Positions 24,065 to 56,252 of a DNA stretch of 64,000 nucleotides are shown in pieces; positions within the stretch are counted from its first letter, which is position 1; each line of letters starts with the position of its first letter. A program made the position numbers and the translations under genes. A model generated the notes under the pieces. That model did not search any database, was not told the origin of the DNA, and saw nothing but the letters and a program-made list of their open reading frames with translations. The stretch covers positions 66,985-130,984 of the forward strand of contig JAKFVA010000009.1 in NCBI GenBank assembly GCA_021732385.1, written 5' to 3'. Source of the stretch: Burkholderiales bacterium (GTDB lineage: Bacteria > Pseudomonadota > Gammaproteobacteria > Burkholderiales > Burkholderiaceae_C).

Positions 24065-24108
24065 CTATTCAGATTGGTCATAGATTTTGATGACCAATAG
24101 CTAACACC

Positions 24109-25055: not shown

Positions 25056-25059
25056 ACGC

Positions 25060-39402: not shown

Positions 39403-39635
39403 AATAGATAGTAAAAAACCATAGCGTTACCCGCACGTCTGTATTGGCTTAAAGCACAAAACAAGGCCTGAAAAATGCCCTAAAAGTCTAAAAAATCGGT
39501 TTTTGCAGCCGCCCTTGGGCTGAAAGTGCTTGAAAATGCCCAAAAAAGACGCTTTTTGGCCTGTTTTTAACAGTCAAAACAGCCCTCAGACCAATACAGA
39601 CGTGCGGGTAGCGCTATGGTTTTTTGCTATCTATT
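39403..39635. mobile_element. MITE-like element, copy B (best preserved)
   Basis: The left end aatagatagtaaaaaaccatagcgttacccgcacgtctgtattgg (39403-39447) matches the reverse complement of ccaatacagacgtgcgggtagcgctatggttttttgctatctatt (39591-39635) with 2 mismatches in about 45 bp. The interior is AT-rich, partly self-complementary and has no credible ORF. Confidence 0.75.
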
Positions 39636-41535
39636 TTTTGCCTTCTGATGCGCCTTTTGCCACCCCGCCCGCGCTGCCCGCCGCGTACTCGGGCACCTGG
39701 GTACGCAGCCAGGTGCGCAGGGTGTCGCTGGCGGGCGCGGGGCCGGCCTGCGCAATCCAGGCCACCACGTCGGCGACGTTCAGCGCCGCCGGGCACGCCG
39801 CGGCGGCGCTGCCAGGCGGGCTGCCAGGCGAGCTGTCAAGAGCGCCGCTGGCAGCCTTGGCAATGCGCAGCTTAGGGTGCGGCGTGGGTTCGGTGGTTTC
39901 GTCGTCGGCCAGCAGTTCTTCGAACAGCTTTTCGCCAGGGCGCAGGCCAGTAAAGCTGATGGGAATGTCCTGCTCGGTCTTGCCCGACAGGCGAATCAGC
40001 ATGCGCGCCAGCTCGACAATCTTCATCGCCTCGCCCATGTCCAGCACAAAAATCTGGCCACTCTTGCCCATCAGCCCAGCCTGCAATACCAGTTGCGCGG
40101 CCTCGGGAATGGTCATGAAATAACGCACGATGTCGGGATGCGTCACGGTGACCGGGCCGCCGCGCGCAATCTGCTGGGTGAACAGCGGCACCACCGAGCC
40201 ACTGCTGCCCAGCACGTTGCCAAAGCGCACCGACAGGTACTCGGTCTTGGGGTACTCCAGCGCCACCGCCTGCATGACGCGCTCGGCCAGGCGCTTGCTC
40301 GCGCCCATCACATTGGTGGGGTTGACCGCTTTGTCAGTGGAAATCAGCACCACGCGTTTGGCGCCGCAAGCGCCAGCCACCCGCGCTACATGCAGCGTGC
40401 CCAGCACGTTGGTGCGCAGCGCCTCAATCTCGTTGAGCTCCTCCATCAGCGGCACATGCTTGTAGGCGGCGGCGTGGAACACCACGGCAGGCGCATGCAG
40501 GCGGCAAATGGCTTCCAGGCGGTCGGCCTCGCGCACATTGGCGGTGTAGTACAGGCCCTGCATTTGCGGGTGGGCGGCGCGCAGCTCTTGCTCCAGCGCA
40601 TAGGCGGCGTATTCGGACACATCCACGCAGACCAGTTTTTTCACGCCAAAGCGCGCAATCTGGCGACACAGCTCGGAGCCAATCGAGCCGCCCGCGCCGG
40701 TCACCAGCACAGTCTGGCCGCTGAGCAAATCCGACAAGCCGGCGGCATCCAGCTGCACCGGATTGCGGCCCAGCAAATCCTCCAGCTCAATCTTGCGCGG
40801 GCCAGCCGATTCGGTACGCAGCCATTCGTCAGGGCGCGGCATGGTCAGCAGGCTCAGGCCCGCGTGATGGGTTTGCAGCAGCACCGCGCGCCGCACGGCT
40901 GAACCGGCGGGGCTGGCCACCAGTACGGTACTGGCACCACTGAACTGCGCTAGCGCATTCAGCCGCTCGGTGCCGCCCAGCACCGGCACGTTTTGAATCG
41001 AGCGGCCCAGCTCAGTGACCAGCGGCGAGACAATGCCTACCGGTTGCCATTGCTGCGAGCCCTTCAAGGCGCGCAACGCGTCGGATGCGTCTTGCAGTGT
41101 GCCCACAATTAAAAGTGGCTGGCCATGCTGCACACCCAGGGTTTGGCGCTCGGCCAACGTGCGCCATGCCGCGCGCACTGCGGCCAAAAATATCAGCGAG
41201 ATCAGCGGGTGCAGGAGCAGCACCGAGCGCGGCACGGCGGTGTAGCGCAGCATGACAATGGTGGCGGTTACCAGCAGCGCACTGAACAACACCCAGCCTG
41301 CCAGCTGGCGCAGCTCTGGCAGGCCAATAAAGCGCCACACCTGGCGGTACACCCGCCCCAAACTCAGCCCCAAAGCAAAGCAGGCCAGCACCAGCGCACT
41401 GGTGCGCCACACCAGCGGCTCTACCGCTGTGGGCACGTCCAGGTTGTAGCGCAGCCACCAGGACAACCACCAGGCCAGCACTACCAGCGCCAAGTCAAGC
41501 GCCAGCAGCAGCCAGATGTCGCTACGCCAGCGCAC
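39631..41535 (-). CDS. Membrane-anchored nucleotide-sugar 4,6-dehydratase (CapD / PglF / WbpM family)
   Basis: N-terminal TM helices are followed by two Rossmann-like regions. Motifs are VLVTGAGGSIGSELCRQI, MGASKRLAE and FGNVLGSSGSVVPLF. The start is uncertain (GTG 41535 or up to 41598). The stop codon lies in the outermost bases of MITE copy B. Confidence 0.85.
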   Translation of the reverse strand: MRWRSDIWLLLALDLALVVLAWWLSWWLRYNLDVPTAVEPLVWRTSALVLACFALGLSLGRVYRQVWRFIGLPELRQLAGWVLFSALLVTATIVMLRYTAVPRSVLLLHPLISLIFLAAVRAAWRTLAERQTLGVQHGQPLLIVGTLQDASDALRALKGSQQWQPVGIVSPLVTELGRSIQNVPVLGGTERLNALAQFSGASTVLVASPAGSAVRRAVLLQTHHAGLSLLTMPRPDEWLRTESAGPRKIELEDLLGRNPVQLDAAGLSDLLSGQTVLVTGAGGSIGSELCRQIARFGVKKLVCVDVSEYAAYALEQELRAAHPQMQGLYYTANVREADRLEAICRLHAPAVVFHAAAYKHVPLMEELNEIEALRTNVLGTLHVARVAGACGAKRVVLISTDKAVNPTNVMGASKRLAERVMQAVALEYPKTEYLSVRFGNVLGSSGSVVPLFTQQIARGGPVTVTHPDIVRYFMTIPEAAQLVLQAGLMGKSGQIFVLDMGEAMKIVELARMLIRLSGKTEQDIPISFTGLRPGEKLFEELLADDETTEPTPHPKLRIAKAASGALDSSPGSPPGSAAAACPAALNVADVVAWIAQAGPAPASDTLRTWLRTQVPEYAAGSAGGVAKGASEGKK

Positions 41536-43027
41536 GCTCGTCCTCTGCCAGCACCAGCGCACGGCGCAGGTAGTCGACCACACGCTGCAACTGGGCATCA
41601 GTCAGGTTGGAGCCCGAAGGCAGGCAAATGCCCGCATGAAACAGCCCCGCCGACACATCGCCGCCAATTTCATGCGGGAAATACGCCGCCTCTTTGTACA
41701 GCGGTTGCAGGTGCATGGGCTTCCATACCGGCCTGGCCTCGATGGAGTGGCGCTCGAGCGAGCGCATGACCAGTTCGCACTTGAGCGCGGCGTTGGGGCC
41801 AGCCAGCGTGAGGCAACTGAGCCAGCGGGTGGAGTGGTAGCCCTCTGGCTCGGGCATCCACTGCACCTGCGGCAAATCAGCCAGCGCGGCGCGGTAAATC
41901 TGGTGCACCCGGCGGCGCTGCTCAACCCGCTGCTTGAGCACCCGCAACTGGCCGCGGCCAATACCGGCCAGCACATTGCTCATGCGGTAGTTGAAGCCCA
42001 GTTGTGTGTGCTCGTAATGCGCTGCCGGTTCACGCGCCTGGGTGGACAGCTTGCGCGCACGCTGCATCAACGCCGGGTCTTGCGAGACCAGCATGCCCCC
42101 ACCCGAGGTGGTGATGATCTTGTTGCCATTGAAAGAAAACACACCCACCTGGCCAAAGGTGCCGCTGGCGCGGCCCTGGTAGCTCGCGCCCAGGGATTCG
42201 GCGGCGTCCTCCAGCACCGGCACGCCGTAGCGCTGGCAAATGGGCAGCAGCGCATCCATGTCGGCGCTTTGCCCATACAGGTTGACGACGATGACGCAGC
42301 GCGGCAGGCGCTGGTGCTGCGCCGCCCAGGCCAAGGCCCGCTCCAGCGCGGCGGGCGACATGTTCCAGGTGGCGGGTTCGGCGTCAATAAAAACCGGCGT
42401 GGCACCGCAGTACAAGACCGGGTTGCAACTGGCTACAAAAGTCAGCGACGAGCAAAACACCGTGTCACCCGCCTGCACCCCCAGCAGCAGCAGGCCCAGG
42501 TGAATCGCGGCTGTGCCGGAGCTCACCGCCGCTGCGTGCCCGCTGCCCACATGCTCGGCCAGCTCGCGCTCAAAACCATCCACATGCGGGCCCAGCGGCG
42601 CGATCCAGTTGCTCTTGAAGGCGTCTTCGACAAAAGCGGTTTCCTCAATGCCCAGGTGCGGCGAAGAAAGCCAGATGCGCTGCGTGAGTTCGCGCCGCGA
42701 CACTATGTCAACCGGGTGAAGTGCCGCAGACAAAACTGGCACGTGGTCAATCTGGTGCTGGTCCATGAGTGCCAGCACCTGCGCGGCAGACGCCGACTCA
42801 CTGACCGTCAAAGGCGTCAGTTCTGGCAATGAATCGAGGCAGGCGTTTTCATTGATGTTGGCCAGGATGGCGCGGCGCAGATCGCCATCGGTCACGGTGC
42901 GGCGCAGGCGGCCGTCGGGATGCAGCGCCAGCAGCACGCCGCGCCCGCTCACATTCAGCGCGAGCAGCGCCTCGCGCAGCTTGCTGCTGGCGGGCACGCA
43001 CAAACGCGCAAATTCCTGTGCCGTCAT
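41522..43027 (-). CDS. CBS-pair domain fused to a DegT/DnrJ/EryC1-family PLP sugar aminotransferase (PglE/LegC-like)
   Basis: The ATG at 43027 (MTAQEF) overlaps the upstream stop (ATGA). Residues ~1-120 form a CBS pair (GRGVLLALHPDGRLRRTVTDGDLRR; IDHVPVLSAALHPVDIVSRREL). The aminotransferase core follows (SSGTAAIHLGL, DMDALLPI, FSFNGNKIITTSGGGML). Confidence 0.85.
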   Translation of the reverse strand: MTAQEFARLCVPASSKLREALLALNVSGRGVLLALHPDGRLRRTVTDGDLRRAILANINENACLDSLPELTPLTVSESASAAQVLALMDQHQIDHVPVLSAALHPVDIVSRRELTQRIWLSSPHLGIEETAFVEDAFKSNWIAPLGPHVDGFERELAEHVGSGHAAAVSSGTAAIHLGLLLLGVQAGDTVFCSSLTFVASCNPVLYCGATPVFIDAEPATWNMSPAALERALAWAAQHQRLPRCVIVVNLYGQSADMDALLPICQRYGVPVLEDAAESLGASYQGRASGTFGQVGVFSFNGNKIITTSGGGMLVSQDPALMQRARKLSTQAREPAAHYEHTQLGFNYRMSNVLAGIGRGQLRVLKQRVEQRRRVHQIYRAALADLPQVQWMPEPEGYHSTRWLSCLTLAGPNAALKCELVMRSLERHSIEARPVWKPMHLQPLYKEAAYFPHEIGGDVSAGLFHAGICLPSGSNLTDAQLQRVVDYLRRALVLAEDERALA

Positions 43028-43656
43028 TTTATTTTCCTGGCAGGCACGCCTGCGTATACGCCGGGCTGTGCCAGTGACTCGCACACCACCGAGCCGGCTC
43101 CCACCACCGCATCGGCGCAAATCGCCACCCCTGGCAGTACGCTGGCACCAGCGCCCACCAGCACGCCTGACCCAATACGAACCCCGCCGCCCAGCACTGC
43201 GCCGGGCGCGATGTGAGAGAAGTCACCTACGCTGACATCGTGATCCACCACAGCGCCATGGTTGACGATGACGCCAATGCCCAGCGCAGCGTTTGGTGCC
43301 ACCACGGCCTGCGCGGCAACAAAGCAACCCGCGCCCATGTGGGCATGTTCTGAAACGCTGGCCATGGGGTGAATGACGCTGACCAGGCACGCCATGCCCA
43401 CCTGCGCAGCGGCAGCCCGCCGGGCCGTGTTGTCGCCAATGGCAATGTGCACTTGCTGCGTGGCAGCCCAGACTGCGGGTGCAGCGTGCAGCGCGATGCC
43501 GGGCAGCAACTCGCCAGCGCAGCGCGCCGGGTCACGGTCGGTCGCGCTCACGCTGCGCCAGGCGGCCTGGCGCACGGCTGCATCGGCCACCACCCGGCCA
43601 TGCCCGCCAGCACCAAGAATCAGCAGCGCAGGCCGCGTTTTGTTTTCCGTATTCAA
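43024..43656 (-). CDS. NeuD/PglD-family hexapeptide-repeat sugar N-acetyltransferase
   Basis: 210 aa. The N-terminal Rossmann-like segment is LLILGAGGHGRVVADAA. The C-terminal left-handed beta-helix repeats are GVIVNHGAVVDHDVSVGDFSHIAPGAVLGGGVRIGSGVLVGAGASV. Confidence 0.8.
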   Translation of the reverse strand: MNTENKTRPALLILGAGGHGRVVADAAVRQAAWRSVSATDRDPARCAGELLPGIALHAAPAVWAATQQVHIAIGDNTARRAAAAQVGMACLVSVIHPMASVSEHAHMGAGCFVAAQAVVAPNAALGIGVIVNHGAVVDHDVSVGDFSHIAPGAVLGGGVRIGSGVLVGAGASVLPGVAICADAVVGAGSVVCESLAQPGVYAGVPARKIK

Positions 43657-44798
43657 TAGGTATTCACTTTTTCCAACAGCGCAGGCTCCAGTGGCAAGCT
43701 GGCCAGCAAACTGGCGATGCGCGGGGCTGAGTGGCCATCACCATAGATATTTTCACACGGGCTTCGGCCGCGCTGCAGGGCAACGCGCAAGGCGGTTTCA
43801 ATAGCCGCCGCATTGGCGGGAACATCAAGCACATTGGCATTGCGCTCGCGCAGCCGCTGGCGGTCGCCAATGTTCACCACCGGCGTGCCCAACGTAGCCG
43901 CTTCAATAATACCGGCCGAGGAATTTCCAGCCAGCAGTTCGCAATGCCGCAAGGCTGCTGCAAACAAAGGCCGCGCCAGATGCGTCAACTGGCGCGACCC
44001 GGCGGGCAGACGCGTGTCTTTCAATGTATCCAGCACGGCCAGCGAACCCGCATCGGCATTGGGTTCGAGCCAAACTACCGGCAGACCCACGGCGCTGAGC
44101 GCCTGCAGCAGCGCCTGCGTCTGCTCACCCGCGTGCTGCGCCTGCTGCACCACGGGGTGAAATACCGCCAGCACAAAGCGCGACGCTGGCACCAGACCCA
44201 GCGCAGCCATGCAGGCAGCGCGGGAAAGCCCGGCGCCCGCCGCCAAATCGTCCAGCCCCGGCGCGCCCGTCACGTGGATGCGCTCAGGCACTTCGCCCAT
44301 GGCAATCAGCCGCTGGCGCGCGCCTTGGGTGGCCACCAGGTGGTAACTGCTGAGTTTGCTGATGGCATGGCGCACCGGCTCGTCCACCGTGCCCGAACGC
44401 TCACCGCCATGAATATGGACACAGGCAATGCCCAGATGCAAGGCGGCGATGGCACCCGCCAGCATTTCACCGCGGTCCCCCAGCACCAGCAGCATGTCGG
44501 GCTGCTCGGCAGCCAGCACTTCGGTCACGCCACGCAAACACTCGGCAATGCCCAGCGCCATGCTGCGCTTGCTGCGCGTGTCCATGTCGAGTGGAACTTC
44601 GCCGCAGATGGCCAGGCCGCTGGCGCGAATCTCGTCAAGCGTATGCCCATGCGCATGGCTCAGGTGCATGCCGGTCACCAGCAAGCGCAGGCCAAGCCCC
44701 GGTGTGGCAGCAATACATGCCAAAGTACCGCGCAGCAGGCCAAAATCAGCGCGCGTTCCGCTCAAATAGATGATGCGGCGAACGGCAACCCCACTCAT
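43653..44798 (-). CDS. neuC: UDP-N-acetylglucosamine 2-epimerase (hydrolysing), NeuC/LegG type
   Basis: The ATG at 44798 (MSGVAVRRIIYLSGTRADFGLL) overlaps the neuB stop (ATGA). Motifs VTGMHL, LVLGDRGEMLAGAIAA, VHIHGGERSGTVDE and GNSSAGIIEA. Confidence 0.85.
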   Translation of the reverse strand: MSGVAVRRIIYLSGTRADFGLLRGTLACIAATPGLGLRLLVTGMHLSHAHGHTLDEIRASGLAICGEVPLDMDTRSKRSMALGIAECLRGVTEVLAAEQPDMLLVLGDRGEMLAGAIAALHLGIACVHIHGGERSGTVDEPVRHAISKLSSYHLVATQGARQRLIAMGEVPERIHVTGAPGLDDLAAGAGLSRAACMAALGLVPASRFVLAVFHPVVQQAQHAGEQTQALLQALSAVGLPVVWLEPNADAGSLAVLDTLKDTRLPAGSRQLTHLARPLFAAALRHCELLAGNSSAGIIEAATLGTPVVNIGDRQRLRERNANVLDVPANAAAIETALRVALQRGRSPCENIYGDGHSAPRIASLLASLPLEPALLEKVNTY

Positions 44799-45835
44799 GG
44801 CGGCCCGCCTTCTATGTGCGTCCATTGCAGCAATGTATGCGCCGTTATGGCGACCCGCGCGCGGCTGCCAATGACGCGCCCAAGCTCGCGTGGCGCAATG
44901 CCGGTGGCTGGCCGCCTGCAAACCAGCATGGTTGCCTCAATCAGGCTGCCCGCCGCAATGTCGCACGCCGCCGCAATGCTGCGCCGTGCCACTTGCGCCA
45001 CATCGCGCTCCTCGGCAGTAGGCGCTTTTACGCCATCGCCGAGCATGGCTGAAACACGGCGGATGCACTGGGTCATAAGTGCGAATTCATCCGGCTCCAG
45101 CGAGGCCGCGTGGTCGGGGCCAGGCAGCTTACGGTCCAGCGTGAGGTGCTTTTCTATCACGCTGGCACCCAGTGCCACGGCGGCCAGCGACGCCTCGATG
45201 CCCAGGCTGTGATCGGAGTAGCCCATAGCAACGCCCAGCGCCTGCGCCATAGTTTGAATGGCTTTCAAGTTGAGCGAGTCGTCGGGCGCTGGATAAGCTG
45301 AGGTGCAATGCAGCACTGTCACCTGCTGCAAGTGCCCCCTGGCGGATGAAACCCATTGCAGGGCCTCGCGGATTTCATCCATCGTGGCCATGCCGGTGGA
45401 TACCAGCAAGGGCACCTGCGCAGCCGCCGCATGCTCGACCAGTGCCCGGTGCGTGAGCTCGCCGGACGACAGCTTGAGCCTGCGTACACCCAGTGCCATC
45501 AGCAAATCCACCGCGGCCACAGAAAACGGAGTGGAGAAAAATTCAATGCCAATGGCTGCGCAGTGGGCCTTGATGGCCTGGTGGTCGGCCTGGGACAGCT
45601 CCAATCGCCTGAGCATTTCAAACTGGTCCTGCTCGCCGGTTTGCTGCGTTTGGTACCTGGCCGTGGGTGCGCCGGGCAGTACCAGGTCCTGCGCCCGGAA
45701 GGTTTGGAATTTGACGGCGTCCGCACCCGCCGCTACAGCAGCGTCGCACAGCGCCAGCGCCAGCTTGAGCTGCCCGTTGTGGTTGACACCTGCCTCTGCA
45801 ATGACAAATACGGGTGTGCTCACCATGCCGTCCAC
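44795..45835 (-). CDS. neuB: Nonulosonic acid (N-acetylneuraminate/legionaminate-type) synthase
   Basis: 346 aa. [56 protein letters not shown] and a C-terminal SAF-like domain. Confidence 0.9.
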   Translation of the reverse strand: MDGMVSTPVFVIAEAGVNHNGQLKLALALCDAAVAAGADAVKFQTFRAQDLVLPGAPTARYQTQQTGEQDQFEMLRRLELSQADHQAIKAHCAAIGIEFFSTPFSVAAVDLLMALGVRRLKLSSGELTHRALVEHAAAAQVPLLVSTGMATMDEIREALQWVSSARGHLQQVTVLHCTSAYPAPDDSLNLKAIQTMAQALGVAMGYSDHSLGIEASLAAVALGASVIEKHLTLDRKLPGPDHAASLEPDEFALMTQCIRRVSAMLGDGVKAPTAEERDVAQVARRSIAAACDIAAGSLIEATMLVCRRPATGIAPRELGRVIGSRARVAITAHTLLQWTHIEGGPP

Positions 45836-47294: not shown

Positions 47295-48256
47295 GCCCCG
47301 CCCCGTTTCATTGCCAGCATTAGGGCAGCGGTTTCCAGCGCTGCTTCGAGCGGGGATTGCACAACATGAGCGGGATCGTGAATGGCCTGGAGCCAGTCGC
47401 GCATTTCAGCGCCGTAGGTAGCGCCAACATCAAAATCCGCTGGATCATTACACAGCAGGCGTGTGCCGGCTTGCTCCTCAACCCAGGCGCGCCGCGCGAT
47501 CAGATCCCAGTGCAAAGTACCGCGCTCACAAACCATGGCGTAGCGCCGTGTGGCCTGCTGCGCCACATAGTCCAGGCTGATGGTGACGGGCGCGCCAGCG
47601 GCCGTACGCAGCAAGGCCACATGCACATCGTCACTGTCAATTGGCAAGCTGCTCAGGCGGGCATTGACGCTGGCCACCACCTCAAGCGGCCCCAGCAGCA
47701 GGCGCGCCATGTCAACCTCATGCACCAGATCAAACAAAACGCCACCACCCTGCCCGGCATGTGCGCTGTAGCCGGACGCCAGATCGCGGCCAGGCCGCCA
47801 ATGAGCCAGGTTTTGGCCCGCCTCGAACTGCGCCCGCACCAGGCGGCCCAGGCCACCGCCCTGCAGCTCCCGCGCAACATGCTGCAACGAACCCAGATAG
47901 CGCAGGTTGCAACCCACAACCACCGAGCGCAGGTTTTGCGCGCGCGCCGCCGCGCGGCGCACAGCCTCTAACTGCTGCGTGGAAACAACCAATGGCTTTT
48001 CCACCAGGCAGGGCAGGTTGCAGCCGAGAATGGCACTGAGTTCGTCTGCATGGCGCGCCGATACACTGGCCACAATCACCGCGTCGGGTTGCCAGTGCAA
48101 CGCCTGCTCCAAAGAACCAAAGCGCTCGCAAGGCGCAAGACCGCCGAGTTCAGTGGATTGGGACAGCACGCCCAGCACGACGCCTGGCACCGCATCACGC
48201 AGGTGCCGGGCATGACGCTGGGCGATGGAGCCGCGGCCAGTGACGAGAACGCGCAT
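47291..48256 (-). CDS. Gfo/Idh/MocA-family oxidoreductase
   Basis: MRVLVTGRGSIAQRHARHL is the Rossmann start. ATG 48256 is chosen, with alternatives at 48265 and 48292. It contains the EKP motif (CLVEKPL). It is the first gene of the 8-gene minus-strand operon. Confidence 0.8.
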   Translation of the reverse strand: MRVLVTGRGSIAQRHARHLRDAVPGVVLGVLSQSTELGGLAPCERFGSLEQALHWQPDAVIVASVSARHADELSAILGCNLPCLVEKPLVVSTQQLEAVRRAAARAQNLRSVVVGCNLRYLGSLQHVARELQGGGLGRLVRAQFEAGQNLAHWRPGRDLASGYSAHAGQGGGVLFDLVHEVDMARLLLGPLEVVASVNARLSSLPIDSDDVHVALLRTAAGAPVTISLDYVAQQATRRYAMVCERGTLHWDLIARRAWVEEQAGTRLLCNDPADFDVGATYGAEMRDWLQAIHDPAHVVQSPLEAALETAALMLAMKRGGA

Positions 48257-48276: not shown

Positions 48277-48292
48277 TTGGATGACAATCCAA
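48277..48292. promoter_or_regulatory. 16-bp palindrome TTGGATgacaATCCAA in the ~85-bp divergent promoter region of the glycan locus
   Basis: Read directly from the sequence. 6-bp perfect arms are separated by 4 bp. It lies between the Gfo/Idh/MocA start (48256/48265) and the GT-B gene start (48343). Confidence 0.3.
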
Positions 48293-48342
48293 TGGTAGTT
48301 CAGAAAATCAGCAGGGTAACCCAGCAATCGCCAGCCAAACCC

Positions 48343-49557
48343 ATGAAAAAAGCCTTGTTTGTCACCTATGGCGGCGGGCACGCAAAAATGGTTTTGCCGG
48401 TGGTGCAGCAATTCCTGCGTGACGGCCGGCTGCAAGTCCAGGTTCTGGCCCTGACCACCGCACGTGCATTGTTCGCGCGGCACGGTGTTGCCACATTGGG
48501 CTTTCATGATTTTGTTACTGCGGCAGACGCCCAGGCGCTGGCCTGGGGCCATGAACTCTGCGCCAGCACGGCGCGCCACCCGGAAATTGAGCCGCAGGAA
48601 AGCGTGGCTTATCTGGGTTTGTCGTTTGCCGATTTGGTAGCAGATGTGGGCCTGGAGCTGGCACGCAGCCGCTACGCCGCCATTGGCCGGGCAGCGTTCT
48701 GCCCAGTACACAGGCTGTCCAACATCATTGCACAACTGCGACCCGATGTGGTGGTTGCCACCAATACCCGGCGCTCTGAAATGGCTGCCATCTTGGCGGC
48801 GCGCCAGCTGGGGATTGCGGCAGTCTGCCTGGTGGACTGGTTTCCGGTTGGCGATGCGCAGGTGCTTGGCACCCCGGGTTATGCCGACCGGGTGTGCGTG
48901 CCCAACCAAGCCTCGCTTGTCCGGCTGGTTGAAGAGGGGCGGCCCGCGCGTGACATCACGGTAACTGGCAACCCGGCATTTGACAGCCTGGCAGCGCCCG
49001 GGCTGCAAAATAAAGCGCAAAAGTGGCTAAGCAACCAGCCTTGGCGAACCCGCAAAAAGATACTCTGGGCCTCACAGCCCGAGCCGATTGCGCACCGCAT
49101 CACGGGCGCGCCCGGTAACCCTGCGTTACCCGAGCAGATTTTTGACTGGCTGCGCAATATGGTGGCTCGCCACCCGGATTGGCACTTGATAGCACGGCCC
49201 CATCCCAGCGAAAACGCCAGTTTTATGCAAGCTGGCCCGCAGTGCAGCGTCAGCTTGCAAACTGAGCCGCTGCACTTGCTGCTGGCCAGCATCGACGTTG
49301 TGGTGTGCATGACTTCGACCGTCGGCTATGAGGCCGCGCTTTTGGGGAAACCACTGGTGCATATACCGCTCTCAGTGCATGGCGACGAGGCGGATTACAC
49401 CCAAATGGGTTTGGCTTTAAAGGCTGCCGAGCCTGGGCAAATTGAACAGGCGTTGGTGGCGATTCTCGAGCACCATTGGCTACCACCTCACAAGCTGCCG
49501 CCACCGGGTGGGGCCACCTCTGCCGCCTGCCAAGTCATTGTGGAGGTAGCCTGCTAG
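48343..49557 (+). CDS. Unassigned GT-B-fold protein (epimerase_2 / CMP-sugar transferase-like); candidate nonulosonate glycosyltransferase
   Basis: ATG at 48343 (MKKALFVTYGGGHAKMVLPV, a G-loop like MurG/PseG). It has LVEEGRPARDITVTGNPAFD, an E-E-G segment resembling the epimerase_2 signature. It has an HP motif (LIARPHPSE) followed by VVCMTSTVGYEAALLGKPLV. The function is not assignable by eye. Confidence 0.55.
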   Translation: MKKALFVTYGGGHAKMVLPVVQQFLRDGRLQVQVLALTTARALFARHGVATLGFHDFVTAADAQALAWGHELCASTARHPEIEPQESVAYLGLSFADLVADVGLELARSRYAAIGRAAFCPVHRLSNIIAQLRPDVVVATNTRRSEMAAILAARQLGIAAVCLVDWFPVGDAQVLGTPGYADRVCVPNQASLVRLVEEGRPARDITVTGNPAFDSLAAPGLQNKAQKWLSNQPWRTRKKILWASQPEPIAHRITGAPGNPALPEQIFDWLRNMVARHPDWHLIARPHPSENASFMQAGPQCSVSLQTEPLHLLLASIDVVVCMTSTVGYEAALLGKPLVHIPLSVHGDEADYTQMGLALKAAEPGQIEQALVAILEHHWLPPHKLPPPGGATSAACQVIVEVAC

Positions 49558-49701: not shown

Positions 49702-50928
49702 ATGACACTCTCTGAAAACGCTTTATCTGTTGTAAAAAAGACCGAGGCCGAGACCCTGGCCACTTTTCAGGAAGAAATACCCTCGATCTATTTTTCGCAC
49801 AAGGGAAAAGAAGACTACGAGACCTATGTGCAGCGTGCCGAGGTCATTTACCGCAATGACTTCAAATTTCCGCCCAAAATGTTTGACGGCGCAGAGCTGA
49901 TTGATTTTGGCGCTGGCACTGGCGAGAACACGGTTTACCTGGCCAACTGGGGCGCGCGCTGCACGCTGGTTGAAATGAACCACCTGGCGCAAAAAATCTC
50001 CAAGGACGTGTTTGCAAAATATGCCAAGCGCCCCAACGAGCACACGTTTCACCTGTCCTCAATTTTTGATTACGCACCCAATGACGGCAAGCTGTATGAC
50101 ATCGTCCATTGCCGGGGCGTGCTTTCCCACACTGCAGCCAAGGAAGAGGCGTTCCGGAAAATTTCCACCTTCCTCAAGCCCGGCGGCTTCCTGATTTTTG
50201 GCGATCCCAACAAGGCGGGCGGCTTCCAGAACATGCTGCAGCGCTTTGCGGTGTACAGCTTTGCCAATACACCCGACGAGATGGTGGACGTCAGCGAACA
50301 GCTCTTCAAGGAAGACATTGACCGCAGCGAGCGGGCGATTCCACGCACACGGCGCGCCATTATTTTCGACCGCTGGGTGATCCAGTCGCAAGACGACCCG
50401 TCCGTGGCCGAGGTCGCCTCGTGGGTCAAGGGCGCTGGCTTGCAGCTGTACTCCAGTTTCCCCAATGTCTTGCTGCCGCAAATGGGCGACTCAATTCACC
50501 ACCAGCCAAAGTTCGATCCCTTCAGCGCAAGCAATCTGTTCCCCTTGGCCGAGCTCACCTGGATGATGCAAACTGAATCCGACAGCGCGTTTTTGGGGGC
50601 CATCGACGCCAGCGCCAGCGCTTTTGCCACTGCGTTTACCGACATCAGCAGCTATGTGCAGAACTTGAACTCCAAGTCTGCGCTGGATACCCAAAAATTC
50701 AAGCAGTTGTCCCAGCAACTGGTGGCCAGTGTCAATGCCGTGCGCCCTTTCCAGCCACTGCGCGACAAACTGGCGGTTTTTGCCGCCGAGTCCTGCGCGT
50801 TCCTGGAAGTCGTCAAGGCGGGCGATCTGGCGGCTGTGCGCCGTTTCATTGAAGGCACGCAGTATCTGTTCAAAGGCGCCTGTGGTGTGCGCCATGTGGA
50901 TTTTGTGGCCTACAAGCCGCTTGCCTGA
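49702..50928 (+). CDS. Class I SAM-dependent methyltransferase with ~200-aa uncharacterised C-terminal domain
   Basis: 408 aa. Motif I is LIDFGAGTGENTVYLA and post-I is LVEMN. Also YDIVHCRGVLSHT and LKPGGFLIFGDPN. A ggaagagg SD precedes the start. GC is visibly lower than in the neighbouring genes. Confidence 0.8.
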   Translation: MTLSENALSVVKKTEAETLATFQEEIPSIYFSHKGKEDYETYVQRAEVIYRNDFKFPPKMFDGAELIDFGAGTGENTVYLANWGARCTLVEMNHLAQKISKDVFAKYAKRPNEHTFHLSSIFDYAPNDGKLYDIVHCRGVLSHTAAKEEAFRKISTFLKPGGFLIFGDPNKAGGFQNMLQRFAVYSFANTPDEMVDVSEQLFKEDIDRSERAIPRTRRAIIFDRWVIQSQDDPSVAEVASWVKGAGLQLYSSFPNVLLPQMGDSIHHQPKFDPFSASNLFPLAELTWMMQTESDSAFLGAIDASASAFATAFTDISSYVQNLNSKSALDTQKFKQLSQQLVASVNAVRPFQPLRDKLAVFAAESCAFLEVVKAGDLAAVRRFIEGTQYLFKGACGVRHVDFVAYKPLA

Positions 50929-50958
50929 TTTTTTAACCCCAATTGGAGTCACGACACC

Positions 50959-52155
50959 ATGCCACCAGTCGAAGCCGGTCGCGTTAACAGCCACAACGAG
51001 TGGGACAAGCTCAAGGAAGTCATTGTTGGCACCGCAGACGGAACCACCGCCGCACTGATCTGGATGCGCCCTGGCCCCATCCCGCCAGACGTGATGGAAA
51101 AGGCACGGGCCATTGCGGCCAAGGCCTGTCCAAAATGGTTTTACGACGAAGTGGCTGAAGACCTGCAAAACCTGGCTGACACCCTGACCAAGCTGGGTGC
51201 CAAGGTATTGCGGCCCACGCCGTACGACCAGACCCGCATGTACGGCACACCGTCCTGGACCTCCAACAGCAACAACGCCTACAACGCGCGCGATCTAAAC
51301 TTGGTGGTGGGCAACAACGTCATCGAAAGCCCCTCGTACTTGGCCAGCCGTTACTACGAAACGTCGGCGCTGTACCCCATTTGGTACCAGTACTTTGACA
51401 AGGGCTTCAAGTGGATTGCCGCGCCCAAACCAATGCTCGACTACGAGGCAAAGCTGCCCTACTTCCGCGACGAAAATGAGCGCGTGCTGACCGATGAAGA
51501 CCTCAAGCACCAGCAATTGACTGGTGGCCGGCTTGAAAAGCTGCACAAGCTAAGTGAGCAGGAAATCCTGTTTGAGGCCGCCAACACGCTGCGCATGGGC
51601 AAGGATTTGCTCTACCTCGTGTCCTCCTCGGGCAACCAAAAAGGCGCGAAATGGCTGCAAAGTGTGCTGGGTGACGAATACCGTGTGCACACCACGTCTG
51701 ACATATACCGCTCCAGTCACATTGACTCCACCTGCATGTGCCTGCGGCCCGGCCTGGTACTGCTCAACAACACGCGTGTCAGCGAGAAAAACTGCCCTCC
51801 CCTGCTTGACAAGTGGGACAAGATTTATTTTGGCGAAGTTGCCCCCACCTCAGAGGTGGAATTGAAATTCCAAAACGAGGTGCGTGATCCGCTGGGCAAC
51901 GAGCTTGAAGCGCTGGGTTTTCAAACCAACCTGCATGACATGTCTTCGCCCTGGGTAGGCATGAATTTTCTTTCGGTGGACCCGCAGACCGTGATCGTTG
52001 ACGAGCGTCAAACCGCGCTAATCAAGATGCTCGAATCGCACAAGTTCACTGTGGTGCCAATCAAGATGCGCCACATCTACACCCAGGGTGGCGGCATTCA
52101 CTGCGCCACACTCGACACAGTCAGGGAAAGCAAGCTGGAAAGCTATTTCGACTGA
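50959..52155 (+). CDS. Amidinotransferase of the arginine:glycine / inosamine-phosphate (AGAT/StrB1) family
   Basis: 398 aa. The N-terminal VNSHNEWDKLKEVIVG matches the AGAT/StrB1 signature (NEWDPLEEVIVG). The catalytic His context is SSHIDSTCMCLRPGLVLLN. The catalytic Cys near the C-terminus is GGGIHCATLDTVR. Confidence 0.85.
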   Translation: MPPVEAGRVNSHNEWDKLKEVIVGTADGTTAALIWMRPGPIPPDVMEKARAIAAKACPKWFYDEVAEDLQNLADTLTKLGAKVLRPTPYDQTRMYGTPSWTSNSNNAYNARDLNLVVGNNVIESPSYLASRYYETSALYPIWYQYFDKGFKWIAAPKPMLDYEAKLPYFRDENERVLTDEDLKHQQLTGGRLEKLHKLSEQEILFEAANTLRMGKDLLYLVSSSGNQKGAKWLQSVLGDEYRVHTTSDIYRSSHIDSTCMCLRPGLVLLNNTRVSEKNCPPLLDKWDKIYFGEVAPTSEVELKFQNEVRDPLGNELEALGFQTNLHDMSSPWVGMNFLSVDPQTVIVDERQTALIKMLESHKFTVVPIKMRHIYTQGGGIHCATLDTVRESKLESYFD

Positions 52156-52162
52156 TTCGCCT

Positions 52163-53125
52163 ATGGCCACTTACCCGGCTTCCTTTGCGCACGGCCTGAT
52201 GTTTCATCGGTTCCACCGGCAGGGGGAGCCAGCCGCCGGGCAGGGCTCAATCAGCGATGCTGCATTTGAGGCAATGCTGCGAGCCATTGGTAGCGAACGC
52301 ATCCTGGCGCCCCAGGAATGGATGTCACGGGCCAACGCTGGTTTGCTGCAACCGGCAGATCTGTGCATCACTTTCGACGACGGTCTCAAAAATCAGGTCG
52401 AGGTAGCGCTACCGGTTCTTGAACGCCTGGGGCTCAAGGCATTTTGGTTCATCTATTCGGCGGCCCTTCGTGGTAGCTATGACCGCAATGAAATTGCCAA
52501 TCTCCTGGCGACACGGTACTTTGCTTCCTTCAATGCGTATGTGCAGCAATTCGAGGCCTTGACCACGGTTTCTCCAAAGGCGTTTGAATCGGCTGACTGG
52601 CACTACTACGCGCAAGGCCTCAAGGCGCGGTTTCCCTTTTATTCAGCCAGCGACGTACGTTACCGCTACATGCGCAACCACCTGCTTTCGCTCACCGAGT
52701 TTGAAGCAGCCGTTGACCGCCTGCTGGCGTTGCTTGGGCTTGATCTGCACGCAGTCGCAGGCCAGTTGTGGATGACAGCGGACCAGGTGGGCGCACTGCA
52801 CACGTCTGGCCATGTCATTGGCATGCACTCCTACAGCCACCCTTTTTCCCTGTCCGCGCTTAGTGCCCGGGATCAGCGGGTTGAATACCAGGCCAATTTT
52901 GATGATTTGACGCAGATCACTGGCCAGCCGCCGCGGAGCATGTCGCATCCGCTCAACTCCTACTCACCTGCAACGCTGGAAATCCTGGCTAATTTGGGGA
53001 TTGAGTGTGGGTTCTGTTCGAACATGCAACCGCCCGGCGGGCATGCCTCGGTGAATCCCAGCCCGTTGGAATTCGCTCGCGAGGATTCAACCACCCTACT
53101 GGCGCTGACCGCCAGCAGCGGTTAA
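52163..53125 (+). CDS. Polysaccharide deacetylase (NodB-homology) family protein
   Basis: ATG at 52163 (MATYPASFAHGLMFHRFH). The NodB motif 1 is ITFDDGLKNQ. Also LKAFWFIY and GMHSYSHP. The stop overlaps the stop of the convergent GS-like gene. Confidence 0.8.
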   Translation: MATYPASFAHGLMFHRFHRQGEPAAGQGSISDAAFEAMLRAIGSERILAPQEWMSRANAGLLQPADLCITFDDGLKNQVEVALPVLERLGLKAFWFIYSAALRGSYDRNEIANLLATRYFASFNAYVQQFEALTTVSPKAFESADWHYYAQGLKARFPFYSASDVRYRYMRNHLLSLTEFEAAVDRLLALLGLDLHAVAGQLWMTADQVGALHTSGHVIGMHSYSHPFSLSALSARDQRVEYQANFDDLTQITGQPPRSMSHPLNSYSPATLEILANLGIECGFCSNMQPPGGHASVNPSPLEFAREDSTTLLALTASSG

Positions 53126-54423
53126 AAGAAATCCACGTAACGGCGAAATTCCGCGGGTGAAATAGCCAGTGCCAGTTCGTCACACTCCGCGCGCTTGCAA
53201 GCAACAAATTCATCCACAAAGACCTGGCCCAGACCCTCGCACAGGGGCCGGTCTGCCTCAAGCAGGTCGAGTGCATCGGGCAGCGCCTGGGGCAGGCGTG
53301 CAATGCCACGCTCGGCCAAGTCGTAGGCGCTAAGCGTATACAGGTTTTCATTGCACGGCGGCCCAGGGTCAAGTTGGCGTGCAATGCCGTCCAAGCCTGC
53401 GTAAATCACCGCTGCAGTCAGCAAATACGGGTTGGTGGAAGCATCCGGCAGGCGCAACTCCAGCCGTCCGCCCGGGCCGCGTACAAAAGCCGTGCGGTTG
53501 TTGTTGCCATACGCCACATGCACAGGCGCCCAGGTGGCCCCAGAACGCGACCCTCTGGAAACCAGCCGTTTGTAGGAGTTGACGCAGGGTGCAGCAATGG
53601 CAGTCAGGCCCTGAGCATGCGCCATTAGGCCGCCCAGAAAATAGTACGCCAGACTGCTCAGTTGCAAGCCATTGGGGTCAGATGCATCCTCAAAAGCGTT
53701 GTGGCCAAAATGCTTACCAGCCGACATGTGCATGTGCAGCCCGCTGCCGGAACGCTCGGCAAACGGTTTGGGCATAAAGGAGCACAGCATGCCGTGCTTT
53801 TTGGCAATGGCCTGCGCCGCCATCTTGAAATACGTCAGGTTGTCGGCGGTCTGCAAGCCCTGCGCATAGGTGAAGTTCATTTCAAACTGGCCATTGGCGT
53901 CCTCATGATCAATCTGGTAGACGTCGATCTCCGCGCCTTCCAGCGCCGAGCGCAGCTCCATCAGAAAGTCCGACACCGACGACAGATGCCGGAAGTCATA
54001 GCAAGGCTTGGCCAGCGACTCGGAATCGGTCGCCACCTCATACGCATCGCCGTTGCGCTTAAGCAGAAAGAACTCGGGTTCCAGGCCGGTGAAAAAATCC
54101 AGACCGGTGGCAGAACGGAAAGCCGCGAGCGCCTTCTTGGCGATCACGCGGGAATCAAGCGGGTGCGGCTTGCCATCCACATGCCCGTCACAGCTTACCG
54201 TAGCGGTGCCCGGCATCCAGGGCACCGGGCGAATGGTATTTTTGTCGCCCACCGCCATAAACTCGCGCCCGTGCGGGCCCATGCCCATGCCGGCAATGGC
54301 AAAGCCGGCAAAACCCGCACCCGCGCCAAAGATCATCTCTTTGTGTTTGGCTGGCACCAGCTTGGCCTTGGGTCGACCATGGATATCGACAAACTGGGCG
54401 AGGTAATAATCAAAATCTTTCAT
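53122..54423 (-). CDS. Glutamine-synthetase-family ligase (GS type III / gamma-glutamyl-amine synthetase-like)
   Basis: 433 aa. The beta-grasp N-domain is YYLAQFVDIHGRPKAKLVP. The catalytic domain has EPEFFLL, IDHEDANGQFEMNF, GSGLHMHMS and NSYKRL. Confidence 0.85.
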   Translation of the reverse strand: MKDFDYYLAQFVDIHGRPKAKLVPAKHKEMIFGAGAGFAGFAIAGMGMGPHGREFMAVGDKNTIRPVPWMPGTATVSCDGHVDGKPHPLDSRVIAKKALAAFRSATGLDFFTGLEPEFFLLKRNGDAYEVATDSESLAKPCYDFRHLSSVSDFLMELRSALEGAEIDVYQIDHEDANGQFEMNFTYAQGLQTADNLTYFKMAAQAIAKKHGMLCSFMPKPFAERSGSGLHMHMSAGKHFGHNAFEDASDPNGLQLSSLAYYFLGGLMAHAQGLTAIAAPCVNSYKRLVSRGSRSGATWAPVHVAYGNNNRTAFVRGPGGRLELRLPDASTNPYLLTAAVIYAGLDGIARQLDPGPPCNENLYTLSAYDLAERGIARLPQALPDALDLLEADRPLCEGLGQVFVDEFVACKRAECDELALAISPAEFRRYVDFF

Positions 54424-54452
54424 GCCGTACTCACTGCCTTGTCGTTAGTTGG

Positions 54453-56198
54453 TTACGGAAAAAATTCTTGCAACCACAGCTTGGTCATCAGCATGGTGCG
54501 CAATTGCCGCGTATGGTTGTGCAAACCGCTGCGGTGCTCGTCGAGCATCACATGCAGCTCCTTGCTGTCAAAACGTCCGCCATCGGGTAGGGCCAACACA
54601 TCGCGCGCCCAGCTGTAGAGGGGGCCCTTGATCCACTCGCCAATCGGCAGGGTGGGCATGGTCTTGGGACGGAATACAAAGTCATGGTCGAAATAATTTA
54701 CCGCGGCAGCTTTGAGGAAATGCTTGCCTGTGCCCTGGTGGTACTTGCTGGTAATCGGCAGGCGCGCAAACAGCTCGCTGACCCGGTGATCGAGAAACGG
54801 CGCGCGCCCCTCTATCGACCAGAACGCGCCCATGCGGTCGCCCTTGACGGCGTTGTTGCCAGGCAGAAGGTAATGCAGCTCATAGGCGGCCACCTGCTCC
54901 ATGGGTTCGAGGTCGGCAAAAGGCCGCACCATCTCCAAAAAGCACGCCAGCGCGTTCTGGGTATGCGGCAAGAAGCCCGGGCTCATCATGCGCTGGCGGT
55001 CTTTGTCGCTGCTGTAGCTGATCAGGTCAAAGTAGCTGTGCATGGAGAAATTGGTGCGCGGCATCTCGGAGAAAAACTGCTCGTTGTGCCTGAAGCCGAG
55101 CATCACTTCATCGGGCCCGTCGCCGGTAAACATGACGATCTTGCCCATCTCGTGCGCGCGGCGCGAGAGCAGGTAAAACAGAAAGAACGAGAAGTCGCCG
55201 TGCGGCTGTTCGGCCTGGCGCACCACCGATTGCGCAATTGCCGGGATGTCTTGCGGCGTGATGTCAAGTGCCGATAAATTGATGTTCAGTTCATCGGCCA
55301 CGCGCTGGGCGTATTGGTATTCCGAAAAGCCTTTTTCCTCGATACGCAGGCCAATCGCGTCGATTTGCGGGCGGTTCCATTGCCTGGCCAGCCGCGCGGC
55401 AATCACCGACGAATCTACCCCACCCGACAGGAACAGGCCGCCATCGACGTCAAAGCGCATTTGCGTGGTGATGGCGGCGTCCAGCGCAGCCTCCAGTTGC
55501 GCGTGGGTAGCGTCTTGGCGCTCTCCACTGATGGGCCACTGCCAGTAGGCCACCGGCTGCGAAAACGCGCCATTTTGGTAGCGGATGTAGCTGCCCGGCG
55601 GCAGTTGCTTGATGCCTTCAAAACAGGTTTCGGGTGGCGGACAGTAGTTGAACGAGAACACGTGGCCCAACGCGGCTTCGTTGACTTTTTTCTCGAAGTT
55701 GGGTAACGCCAAAATTGCCTTCATCTCGCTGGCAAACGCCAGACCGCCCTGGTAGGGCGCGTAGAAAAAAGGTTTGATGCCCTGCCGGTCACGCGCCAGC
55801 AGTGCGGTTTGGGTGCGTGTATCCCAGATACAAAAGGCAAATACGCCCACCAAGTCATCCAGCATCCTCTCGCGCTTTTCGTCCCACAGGTGCACCAGCA
55901 CCTCAGTGTCGCAGCGCGACTTGAATTTATAGCCCTTGGCCTTGAGCTGCTCGCGCAGTTCAATGAAGTTGTAGATTTCGCCATTGAAGACCACCCACAC
56001 GCTGCCATCGGCATTGCACATGGGCTGCATGCCGTTCTCGCGGTCAACCACCGCCAGGCGCGCGTGGCCCAAAATGGCTGCGCCCAGCGCCTTGACACCC
56101 ATCTCGTCGGGGCCGCGGTACTTGATGCACTCGATCATCTGCTCCACATGCGCTGCGCTGACGCCCGAGGCACCGACCACTCCCGTCATTCCACACAT
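54453..56198 (-). CDS. asnB: Asparagine synthase (glutamine-hydrolysing) family amidotransferase
   Basis: 581 aa. The N-terminal nucleophile is MCGMTGVV. The Ntn glutaminase domain has HARLAVVD and VFNGEIYNF. The PP-loop is FLSGGVDSSVIAA. Confidence 0.9.
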   Translation of the reverse strand: MCGMTGVVGASGVSAAHVEQMIECIKYRGPDEMGVKALGAAILGHARLAVVDRENGMQPMCNADGSVWVVFNGEIYNFIELREQLKAKGYKFKSRCDTEVLVHLWDEKRERMLDDLVGVFAFCIWDTRTQTALLARDRQGIKPFFYAPYQGGLAFASEMKAILALPNFEKKVNEAALGHVFSFNYCPPPETCFEGIKQLPPGSYIRYQNGAFSQPVAYWQWPISGERQDATHAQLEAALDAAITTQMRFDVDGGLFLSGGVDSSVIAARLARQWNRPQIDAIGLRIEEKGFSEYQYAQRVADELNINLSALDITPQDIPAIAQSVVRQAEQPHGDFSFFLFYLLSRRAHEMGKIVMFTGDGPDEVMLGFRHNEQFFSEMPRTNFSMHSYFDLISYSSDKDRQRMMSPGFLPHTQNALACFLEMVRPFADLEPMEQVAAYELHYLLPGNNAVKGDRMGAFWSIEGRAPFLDHRVSELFARLPITSKYHQGTGKHFLKAAAVNYFDHDFVFRPKTMPTLPIGEWIKGPLYSWARDVLALPDGGRFDSKELHVMLDEHRSGLHNHTRQLRTMLMTKLWLQEFFP

Positions 56199-56252
56199 AA
56201 CTGTCCTTTTGAATTTAGCGTCATTTTTAAACCTGTCTGCCGCCTAAAACGC

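Follow-up and report, generated by a model that had tools for sequence, protein, structure and literature searches.

We describe here a three-gene cassette, encoding an S-adenosylmethionine (SAM)-dependent methyltransferase (MT), an amidinotransferase (AmT) and a NodB-type de-N-acetylase, which lies in the nonulosonic acid (NulO) locus of a Burkholderiales bacterium (GenBank assembly GCA_021732385.1). The window, that is the whole stretch of DNA analysed, comprises 64,000 nucleotides of contig JAKFVA010000009.1 (positions 66,985 to 130,984, forward strand). Our proposal, to which we give a probability of about 60%, is that the cassette exchanges an N-acetyl group for a guanidino group on a legionaminic-type NulO or on a late precursor of it. 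A guanidino-sugar product had been put forward in a preliminary description of this DNA; the computational checks suggested there all came out in its favour, and it is the reading best supported by the present data, namely by a true amidinotransferase, by the glycan and NulO loci in which it is found, by the slot that outgroup enzymes occupy in pseudaminic acid (Pse) operons, and by the precedent of free-amine CMP-NulOs; the product itself is predicted from sequence. The novelty, with respect to the literature searched, lies in the fixed association of three known enzyme families with each other and with NulO pathways, and the predicted product would be new chemistry. The observations reported below concern the family identities of the three proteins, their conserved catalytic residues, their cytoplasmic location and their conserved synteny.

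The amidinotransferase and its active site

The three cassette genes are plus-strand neighbours separated by gaps of 30 nt (50929-50958) and 7 nt (52156-52162), and both the open reading frames (ORFs) and the window DNA agree on this point with the preliminary description. Purine-rich, Shine-Dalgarno-like runs precede the MT and AmT starts; for the NodB gene, an alternative GTG start at 52088 would give a longer product and would overlap the AmT gene. The peptide motifs quoted in that description were all found, namely NEWDKLKEVIVG (AmT residues 13-24), SSHIDST and GGGIHCATLD in AmT, and ITFDDG and GMHSYSHP in the NodB protein. The family labels that it had assigned (class I MT, StrB1/AGAT-type AmT, NodB deacetylase) were upheld by Pfam and by a sequence search of the PDB.

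Specifically, a phmmer search with AmT against the PDB returned StrB1 (1bwd, E=6.6e-77), SxtG (4e-47), HsvA (2.3e-44) and AGAT (1.1e-42). Among the relatives with which the enzyme had been grouped beforehand (StrB1, CyrA, AmtA and AGAT), StrB1 is the closest solved one, with 40% identity across AmT residues 9-396. In an alignment of AmT with StrB1 and 80 family representatives, Cys382 (GGGIHCATLD) and His254 (SSHIDST) align with Cys332 and His227 of StrB1 and are invariant in 25 of 25 sequences of the AmT clade delimited below; the guanidino-binding residues Asp112 and Asp256 are conserved as well. The Cys-His-Asp triad expected for this protein was borne out in its Cys and its His, but not in its Asp, as Glu206 (FEAAN) replaces Asp179 of StrB1 (FDAAN) and Asp254 of AGAT, with the carboxylate being kept. 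This Glu is invariant in the clade. In addition, two segments of AmT are longer than in StrB1 and HsvA, by approximately 18-23 residues around 161-187 and by approximately 23 residues within 295-327, and the 33-residue stretch 295-327 is common to the clade and its nearest outgroups only.

Pfam and NCBIfam matches alone would have misled on AmT, and the PDB sequence search was decisive. No Pfam model matched above threshold, with ADI (PF02274) reaching 21.2 bits (cutoff 22.8) and PAD_porph (PF04371) 19.9 bits (cutoff 25); the sub-threshold Pfam/NCBIfam ADI/DDAH matches cover only the C-terminal 55 residues or so, and DDAH structures appear in the PDB search at E of approximately 0.6-0.7. On these grounds an ADI/DDAH/PAD hydrolase label was rejected. 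That AmT is nevertheless a hydrolase or deiminase, or that it runs the reverse reaction and removes an amidino-type group from sugar or arginine derivatives, we hold to be very improbable. Such an activity would suit the weak C-terminal ADI, DDAH and PAD matches, the dimethylarginine dimethylaminohydrolase label given by JGI to many homologues and the Glu in place of the triad Asp, but full-length similarity is to transferases (E=1e-77 to 1e-42, against approximately 0.6 for DDAH), Glu is also found sporadically at the same triad position in other amidinotransferase-family representatives, and the constant pairing with an amine-producing deacetylase, documented below, fits transfer and not hydrolysis. 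In conclusion, the middle protein is, as judged from its sequence, a genuine StrB1/AGAT-family amidinotransferase.

StrB1 is the L-arginine:inosamine-phosphate amidinotransferase of streptomycin biosynthesis (EC 2.1.4.2), and AGAT/StrB1 chemistry follows a ping-pong course through a Cys-S-amidino intermediate. AmT has in common with StrB1 the fold family, the Cys nucleophile, the His and both guanidino-binding Asp residues, and the StrB1 acceptor, a primary amine on a phosphorylated six-membered cyclitol ring, is a close chemical analogue of an amino sugar. The two enzymes differ in that StrB1 belongs to an aminocyclitol antibiotic cluster, whereas the window AmT lies in a NulO/glycan locus and its clade has a CE4 partner (29/33 loci), two extra segments and a Glu for the triad Asp. 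AmT was rejected as a StrB1 orthologue because of its NulO/glycan context, the identity of only 40%, the two clade-specific insertions and the drop from 562 to 360 bits that separates the clade from its next relatives. The name "Inosamine-phosphate amidinotransferase 1" given to UniProt A3PE84 of Prochlorococcus MIT 9301 is a case of homology transfer, not of orthology.

Distribution of the clade and conserved neighbourhood

Approximately 1,500 AmT homologues were found at E<=1e-10, and the best 120 of these, which belong to lineages unrelated to each other, show 71-100% identity. When 1.8 billion cluster representatives were searched exhaustively, the AmT clade fell into a single cluster at 50% identity (562 bits), and no further relative exceeded 360 bits. 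The clade is tight (55-92% identity) yet spread over many phyla, its members coming, among others, from SAR11/Pelagibacter, Prochlorococcus, Acidobacteriota, Planctomycetota, Leptospiraceae, Gemmatimonadaceae, Lentisphaerae, Actinomycetota, Saccharibacteria and Komeilibacteria, bacteria of the candidate phyla radiation (CPR) included. An identical AmT in the same neighbourhood was found in Burkholderiales metagenome-assembled genomes (MAGs).

A scan of one genome per GTDB species yielded 33 clade loci with AmT at >=55% identity, together with about 10 distant AmT homologues (30-39% identity). Neighbours were counted by searching the window locus proteins against all ORFs of the 33 loci, with Pfam checks on apparent exceptions. 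A NodB homologue lies near AmT, either on the same strand within 3 kb or divergent and adjacent, at 29 of the 33 loci, and MT is adjacent to AmT at 18. The co-occurrence with neuB and neuC that had been anticipated is found as well, NeuB lying within 10 kb of AmT at 19 loci and NeuC at 16; a CMP-transferase is present at the same distance at 19 loci, and at least one of these three at 23. Reverse sampling starting from NodB homologues gave AmT as the adjacent gene in every case sampled, while none of the distant AmT homologues has NodB, MT or NulO neighbours. The possibility that close homologues are confined to toxin or antibiotic clusters, raised beforehand, is contradicted by the 33 loci, in which they sit in surface-glycan loci, mostly of NulO type.

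In several genomes the cassette is placed inside the NulO operon itself (L008, L013, L015, L022, L027 and L038, with L054 laid out alike), an example of gene order being NeuB-NeuC-AmT-NodB-(MT)-GFO-CMP-transferase-SDR, where SDR stands for a short-chain dehydrogenase/reductase. At least six loci have NulO-specific genes on both sides of the cassette and on the same strand. The GFO, CMP-transferase and SDR trio flanks the cassette in L008, L009, L013, L015, L022, L025, L054 and L058, and 9 of 10 neighbouring synthases score as NeuB/LegI-type over PseI. The cassette most likely moves horizontally between surface-glycan islands.

Two further features of these loci deserve mention. Between SDR and NeuB of a cassette-bearing legionaminic acid (Leg) operon (L053/L054, 6029-7123) lies the gene for a conserved protein of 364 aa that neither Pfam nor NCBIfam matches. 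Carbamoyltransferase genes (Carbam_trans_N/C) are found right after NodB or near AmT in two unrelated loci (L058, 8060-9865, and L056, 10869-12482), which hints at a further nitrogen-rich tailoring, by carbamoylation, of the same glycans.

The deacetylase and the methyltransferase

The NodB protein belongs to the Polysacc_deac_1 family, and in an alignment of 26 homologues the columns D72/D73 (TFDD), H222/H226 (HSxxH), H262-P263, R306 and D308 are invariant. Its N-terminal MFHRFH motif includes an invariant H15, located in the place where circularly permuted CE4 enzymes have the catalytic-acid His. The AlphaFold (AF2) model, with a predicted local distance difference test (pLDDT) score of 91.3, gave as top Foldseek matches PplD (E=2e-11, TM-score 0.77 on target), PgaB, IcaB, BpsB and BC0361, so that the predicted fold is nearest to the circularly permuted de-N-acetylases PplD, PgaB, IcaB and BpsB. 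No signal peptide or transmembrane segment was found in MT, AmT or NodB, which indicates that the three proteins would act on soluble cytoplasmic precursors and not on an exported polymer. From its sequence, the NodB protein appears to be a CE4 de-N-acetylase with intact metal and catalytic residues, predicted to be cytoplasmic, and it is predicted to expose the acceptor amine for AmT.

MT matches Methyltransf_23 with 60.6 bits (cutoff 27) over residues 56-184, and its glycine-rich DFGAGTGE motif is invariant among homologues. Full-length homologues, 58-96% identical across phyla, are encoded on the same contigs as AmT. The C-terminal domain of no known family that had been noticed earlier was found again: it spans approximately 220 residues, is conserved in the homologues and has no match in Pfam. 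The AF2 model (pLDDT 82.7) consists of a class I fold followed by this C-terminal helical domain. Foldseek returned only generic class I methyltransferases with low TM-scores (CmoM, UbiG, PKMT1 and RebM), and no informative neighbour for the helical domain; reading the MT substrate off the structure search was abandoned for this reason. The best NCBIfam match, a weak one, is to sarcosine/dimethylglycine N-methyltransferase. MT is an optional third member of the cassette.

Outgroup enzymes in pseudaminic acid operons

The nearest outgroup AmTs, P0363 (45% identity) and P0365 (41%), have the same 33-residue insertion as the clade. They sit directly between PseI and the cytidylyltransferase in operons of the order PseB-PseC-PseG-PseI-AmT-cytidylyltransferase, with PseB (513 bits) and PseC (538 bits) clearly recognised and PseG strongly divergent (33-112 bits, cutoff 153.6). 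The canonical Pse pathway uses PseH to acetylate the 4-amino group. With every ORF slot of the outgroup Pse operons accounted for, neither NodB nor an acetyltransferase of PseH or hexapeptide type is encoded there. The presence of AmT where PseH is missing provides an independent argument that AmT caps a sugar amine, and suggests that these operons (L055-L057) specify a variant of Pse in which the 7-amino group never receives an acetyl. In L056 a second NeuB homologue and a carbamoyltransferase are encoded as well.

A comparable arrangement is seen in the SAR11 locus L030, which has no NodB and which encodes, around AmT, two DegT aminotransferases, an NDP-sugar dehydratase, a nucleotidyltransferase and a sugar C-methyltransferase. 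Both in L030 and in the Pse outgroups, the lack of a deacetylase implies that the pathway amine is directly available. A simple rule covers these cases: AmT adjoins the source of the sugar amine, which is a deacetylase where the pathway acetylates and an aminotransferase where it does not.

The host locus and its downstream block

The glycan locus of the window spans approximately 39.6-62.1 kb, bordered on the left by TRAP-transporter genes and on the right by a lysyl-tRNA synthetase gene, and its G+C content of 0.57-0.58 is lower than that of most of the window. A second stretch, at 16000-28000 and upstream of a FimV-like gene (27636-30380), has a G+C content of 0.53-0.58 against 0.60-0.68 elsewhere and may be another horizontally acquired island. 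The features considered in this study are collected in Table 1.

Table 1. Features of the window, and operons and phage genes used for comparison.
Feature	Position	Strand	Support
PglF/WbpM-like membrane-anchored UDP-GlcNAc 4,6-dehydratase	39631..41598	-	Polysacc_synt_2; best NCBIfam match PseB, below cutoff
LegC-family sugar aminotransferase	41522..43027	-	TIGR04181 369 bits (cutoff 420, best match below cutoff); DegT_DnrJ_EryC1
NeuD/PglD-family N-acetyltransferase	43024..43656	-	TIGR03570 185 bits (cutoff 160.8)
NeuC-type hydrolysing 2-epimerase	43653..44798	-	TIGR03568 364 bits (cutoff 235.9)
NeuB/LegI-type nonulosonic acid synthase	44795..45826	-	TIGR03569 418 bits (cutoff 399.65); PseI model 270 bits
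SDR oxidoreductase	45820-46608	-	Pfam adh_short
CMP-NulO synthetase	46605-47294	-	Pfam CTP_transf_3; PseF-like cytidylyltransferase 121 bits (cutoff 206)
GFO/IDH/MocA oxidoreductase	47291-48256	-	Pfam GFO_IDH_MocA
GT-B-fold protein resembling NulO/ulosonic-acid transferases	48292..49557	+	Epimerase_2 44 bits (cutoff 30.6); weak Capsule_synth
Class I SAM methyltransferase (MT), 408 aa	49702..50928	+	Pfam Methyltransf_23/11/31/12/25 above cutoffs
Amidinotransferase (AmT), StrB1/AGAT family, 398 aa	50959..52155	+	phmmer vs PDB, catalytic columns
CE4 (NodB-fold) de-N-acetylase, 320 aa from ATG	52163..53125	+	Polysacc_deac_1 62.4 bits (cutoff 23.1)
Convergent downstream block: type III glutamine synthetase (GS-III)-like ligase, AsnB-like, GcvPA/GcvPB, small Bac_transf sugar transferase, HpcH/HpaI-like	53122-60568	-	
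Pse operon with AmT, L055	3633-9900		
Pse operon with AmT, L056	456-5557		
Pse operon with AmT, L057	785-5886		
Phage homologue, PQ898602.1 (S-SCSM2R)	234561-235523		
Phage homologue, NC_027997.1 (CP220)	76082-76969		

The NulO setting recognised in the preliminary description was confirmed by NeuB, NeuC and NeuD/PglD models above their cutoffs, with a LegC-family aminotransferase and a CMP-transferase also being present. The window appears, by its enzyme families, to encode a complete legionaminic-type NulO pathway on the minus strand, divergent from the cassette, where "legionaminic-type" is an enzyme-family call, since the stereochemistry (Leg or an epimer) cannot be read from sequence. The dehydratase catalyses the first step of the di-amino-sugar/NulO pathway, and the LegC-family enzyme is predicted to put in the 4-amino group that later becomes N7 of the NulO. 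No second amino-sugar pathway beside the Leg pathway was detected among the locus proteins with Pfam and NCBIfam. The GT-B gene is on the cassette strand, 144 nt upstream of the MT gene; its matches to the NCBIfam BFO_1060-family glycosyltransferase and to TIGR04396 are both below cutoff, and its product is tentatively a candidate transferase for the modified NulO.

Downstream of the cassette, the convergent genes include a GS-III-like ligase (TIGR03105, 525 bits), an AsnB-like amidotransferase (398 bits) and also a MurJ-like flippase. GcvPA and GcvPB, the subunits of the glycine-cleavage P-protein, are encoded in the same glycan locus, and neither a T nor an H protein was seen close to them; a pyridoxal phosphate (PLP)-dependent glycine decarboxylase in such a place may mark a second pathway for a different N-substituent. 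GS-III, GcvPA/PB, HpcH, the Bac_transf sugar transferase and MurJ accompany the cassette at 0 of the 33 loci and AsnB at 1, and the GS-III/AsnB-like/GcvPA-PB/HpcH block was rejected as a part of the cassette for this reason. An earlier suggestion, that a guanidinoacetyl donor derived from glycine would tie the cassette to the glycine decarboxylase module, is not supported, in view of the same count for GcvPA/PB.

More generally, AmT could make a free guanidino acid, such as guanidinoacetate, homoarginine or, after methylation, a creatine-like compound, which a ligase would then couple, as an N-acyl substituent, to the amine that NodB exposes. We consider this improbable. The pairing of an AGAT-type enzyme with a methyltransferase follows creatine logic, the weak best NCBIfam match of MT points in the same direction, and amide-forming ATP-dependent enzymes (GS-III and AsnB-like) are neighbours in the window; against this, no ligase is conserved with the cassette, and the closest characterised relative of AmT is StrB1, with its ring-amine acceptor, and not the glycine-specific AGAT or CyrA.

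Comparison with known systems

The replacement of an N-acetyl group on a NulO by a cationic group has a functional analogue in Campylobacter jejuni, in whose Leg operon PtmG and PtmH give rise to acetamidino and N-methylacetimidoyl groups and to a net-neutral NulO (preprint 10.64898/2026.04.20.719630). As in the case proposed here, tailoring enzymes of a Leg operon produce a cationic amidine-type group from N-acetyl, N-methylation being the next step. However, PseA/PtmG is an ATP-dependent amidotransferase that leaves the carbon skeleton of the acetyl in place (O to NH, -0.984 Da), while the window cassette would remove the acetyl and add the amidino group of arginine (+0.011 Da with respect to acetyl) via a proposed Cys-thiouronium. 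The AmT superfamily differs from the PseA/PtmG/WbpG-type amidotransferases, and the likeness is an analogy by description.

A second precedent comes from the Leg cluster of Ca. Kuenenia stuttgartiensis, which encodes a deacetylase and a formyltransferase and for which free-amine CMP-NulOs have been shown (SugarBase preprint 10.64898/2026.04.20.719630). These data indicate that deacetylation and re-capping at the nucleotide-sugar level has a precedent, the common element being that Leg-pathway deacetylation generates a free amine on a CMP-sugar that another enzyme caps again. The two systems differ in that a formyltransferase re-caps in Kuenenia and its product was seen by mass spectrometry (MS), whereas an amidinotransferase would do so in the window and its product is predicted; the likeness is one of pathways. 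The NodB homologue P0359 was considered as the published Kuenenia deacetylase and rejected, as its context is an ordinary AmT-NodB-MT Leg locus with no formyltransferase nearby.

AGAT-GAMT, CyrA, SxtG, HsvA and AmtA belong to the same enzyme family as AmT, and AGAT-GAMT also pairs an amidinotransferase with a methyltransferase. AGAT, SxtG and HsvA are less similar to AmT (E=1e-42 to 1e-47), and the acceptors in this group are small free amines (glycine, lysine, polyamines, a polyketide-like amine), with no glycan context and no deacetylase partner. Amidinotransferase-family proteins of phages, detected by tblastn in S-SCSM2R and in the Campylobacter phages CP220 and F379, are approximately 28% identical to AmT and were excluded from the clade on account of this low identity. 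A cyanophage "inosamine amidinotransferase" located beside a DegT-like gene has been read as an antibiotic-synthesis gene (PMC12801897).

As the preliminary description had supposed, no natural guanidino NulO, and no cassette of this kind, was found to be described: in the full-text literature, with most subscription-journal papers outside its scope, neither amidinotransferases with nonulosonic acids nor guanidino groups with Leg, Pse or NulO were found together.

Proposed pathway and its weighing

We infer the donor, the acceptor, the modified position, the order of the steps and the site of methylation as follows. The cytoplasmic CE4 enzyme would strip one N-acetyl group and expose a primary amine. 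With low confidence, the acetyl removed may be the GlcNAc-derived one, at what becomes N5, and its removal may follow the NeuB reaction, with the free or the CMP-activated sugar as substrate; we favour N5 because no acetyl other than the GlcNAc-derived one is shared by all of these pathways. For the Pse-type outgroups, the amine installed by PseC (N7) would be the more likely target, again with low confidence. AmT would then take the amidino group from L-arginine onto Cys382 as a covalent thiouronium, with ornithine leaving, and pass it to the sugar amine to form a guanidinium. In approximately half of the loci MT would add a methyl group, possibly on a guanidino nitrogen, and the modified CMP-NulO would be used by the transferases of the locus. 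The net effect would be the conversion of an anionic sugar into a zwitterion, with altered surface charge and altered epitopes for phages and predators.

In the Acidobacteriota MAG locus L007, the gene right after AmT encodes an ornithine carbamoyltransferase (11313-12272), which fits a reaction that uses arginine as donor and leaves ornithine as by-product, and the layout may reflect ornithine recycling.

The near-isobaric character of the exchange, pointed out beforehand, holds by calculation, the two increments being 42.0106 (acetyl) and 42.0218 (amidino) and hence 0.0112 Da apart. The calculated masses are 334.1376 for Leg5,7Ac2, 334.1488 for its mono-guanidino form and 348.1645 for the methylated form.

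The nature of the acceptor was weighed with respect to loci that depart from the common pattern. In Prochlorococcus marinus MIT 9301 (L050, 10001-12164), AmT and a convergent NodB lie in a lipopolysaccharide (LPS)/glycan island together with GDP-mannose dehydratase-type enzymes, a WbpM-like dehydratase, a radical-SAM/SPASM protein and a His_biosynth+GATase pair. The cassette might in general target a non-NulO amino sugar, for instance a 2-acetamido hexose or a bacillosamine-type UDP-sugar, and be close to NulO genes only through shared glycan islands. Here the AmT-NodB pairs of MIT 9301 and L060, with no NulO synthase within 7-10 kb, the NDP-hexose cluster of L030 and the 10 of 33 loci with no NulO core gene within 10 kb speak for such a target. 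We nevertheless judge it unlikely as the general case, considering that at least six loci have the cassette enclosed by NulO-specific genes of the same strand, that the outgroup AmTs lie exactly between PseI and the cytidylyltransferase, and that the Leg pathway is the sole amino-sugar pathway of the window locus.

Several points weigh against the guanidino-NulO proposal. The same MIT 9301 and L060 pairs in glycan islands count here, as do the Acidobacteriota loci L007 and L010, which have no sugar genes next to AmT, the neighbours in L007 being large Ig-like surface proteins. The contexts of MIT 9301, L060, L007 and L010 rule out a NulO as the universal acceptor, which is probably better described as an amino sugar, not always a NulO. 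AmT is unrecognised by Pfam above threshold, its triad Asp appears as Glu throughout the clade sequences aligned, and the fold predicted for MT is silent on N- versus O-methylation. In addition, NeuC, NeuB, the cytidylyltransferase and the glycosyltransferases would have to take a guanidino or amino substrate. The whole case is one of guilt by association, and a guanidino NulO is not known from biochemical or structural-chemical work on any system.

Implications

We put at even odds the broader claim that a natural guanidino, and N-methylguanidino, NulO or amino sugar is made by this cassette, that the cassette is horizontally mobile and reaches very many bacteria, including SAR11 and Prochlorococcus, the most abundant marine lineages, and CPR bacteria, and that the sugar went unnoticed as an isobaric species within 0.011 Da of the acetylated form. 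If true, the sugar would belong to a new class of cationic decorations, and AmT would be the first amidinotransferase to serve a glycan rather than toxin, antibiotic or creatine metabolism, and guanidinium would join the short list of N-substituents on bacterial sialic-acid-like sugars. Many "di-N-acetyl" NulO assignments made by low-resolution MS could then be wrong. The approximately 1,500 homologues are named "inosamine-phosphate amidinotransferase", "glycine amidinotransferase" or "dimethylarginine dimethylaminohydrolase", and the close members of the clade would need re-annotation.

The hypothesis is directly testable, as Prochlorococcus marinus MIT 9301 (ABO18059.1) is a carrier in culture and Escherichia coli lends itself to the reconstitution of Leg pathways. 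If the proposal is correct, a zwitterionic sugar of this kind would bear on phage adsorption, grazing, resistance to serum and antimicrobial peptides, and lectin recognition, and in nitrogen-poor oceans the SAR11 and Prochlorococcus islands would be spending arginine nitrogen on surface diversification.

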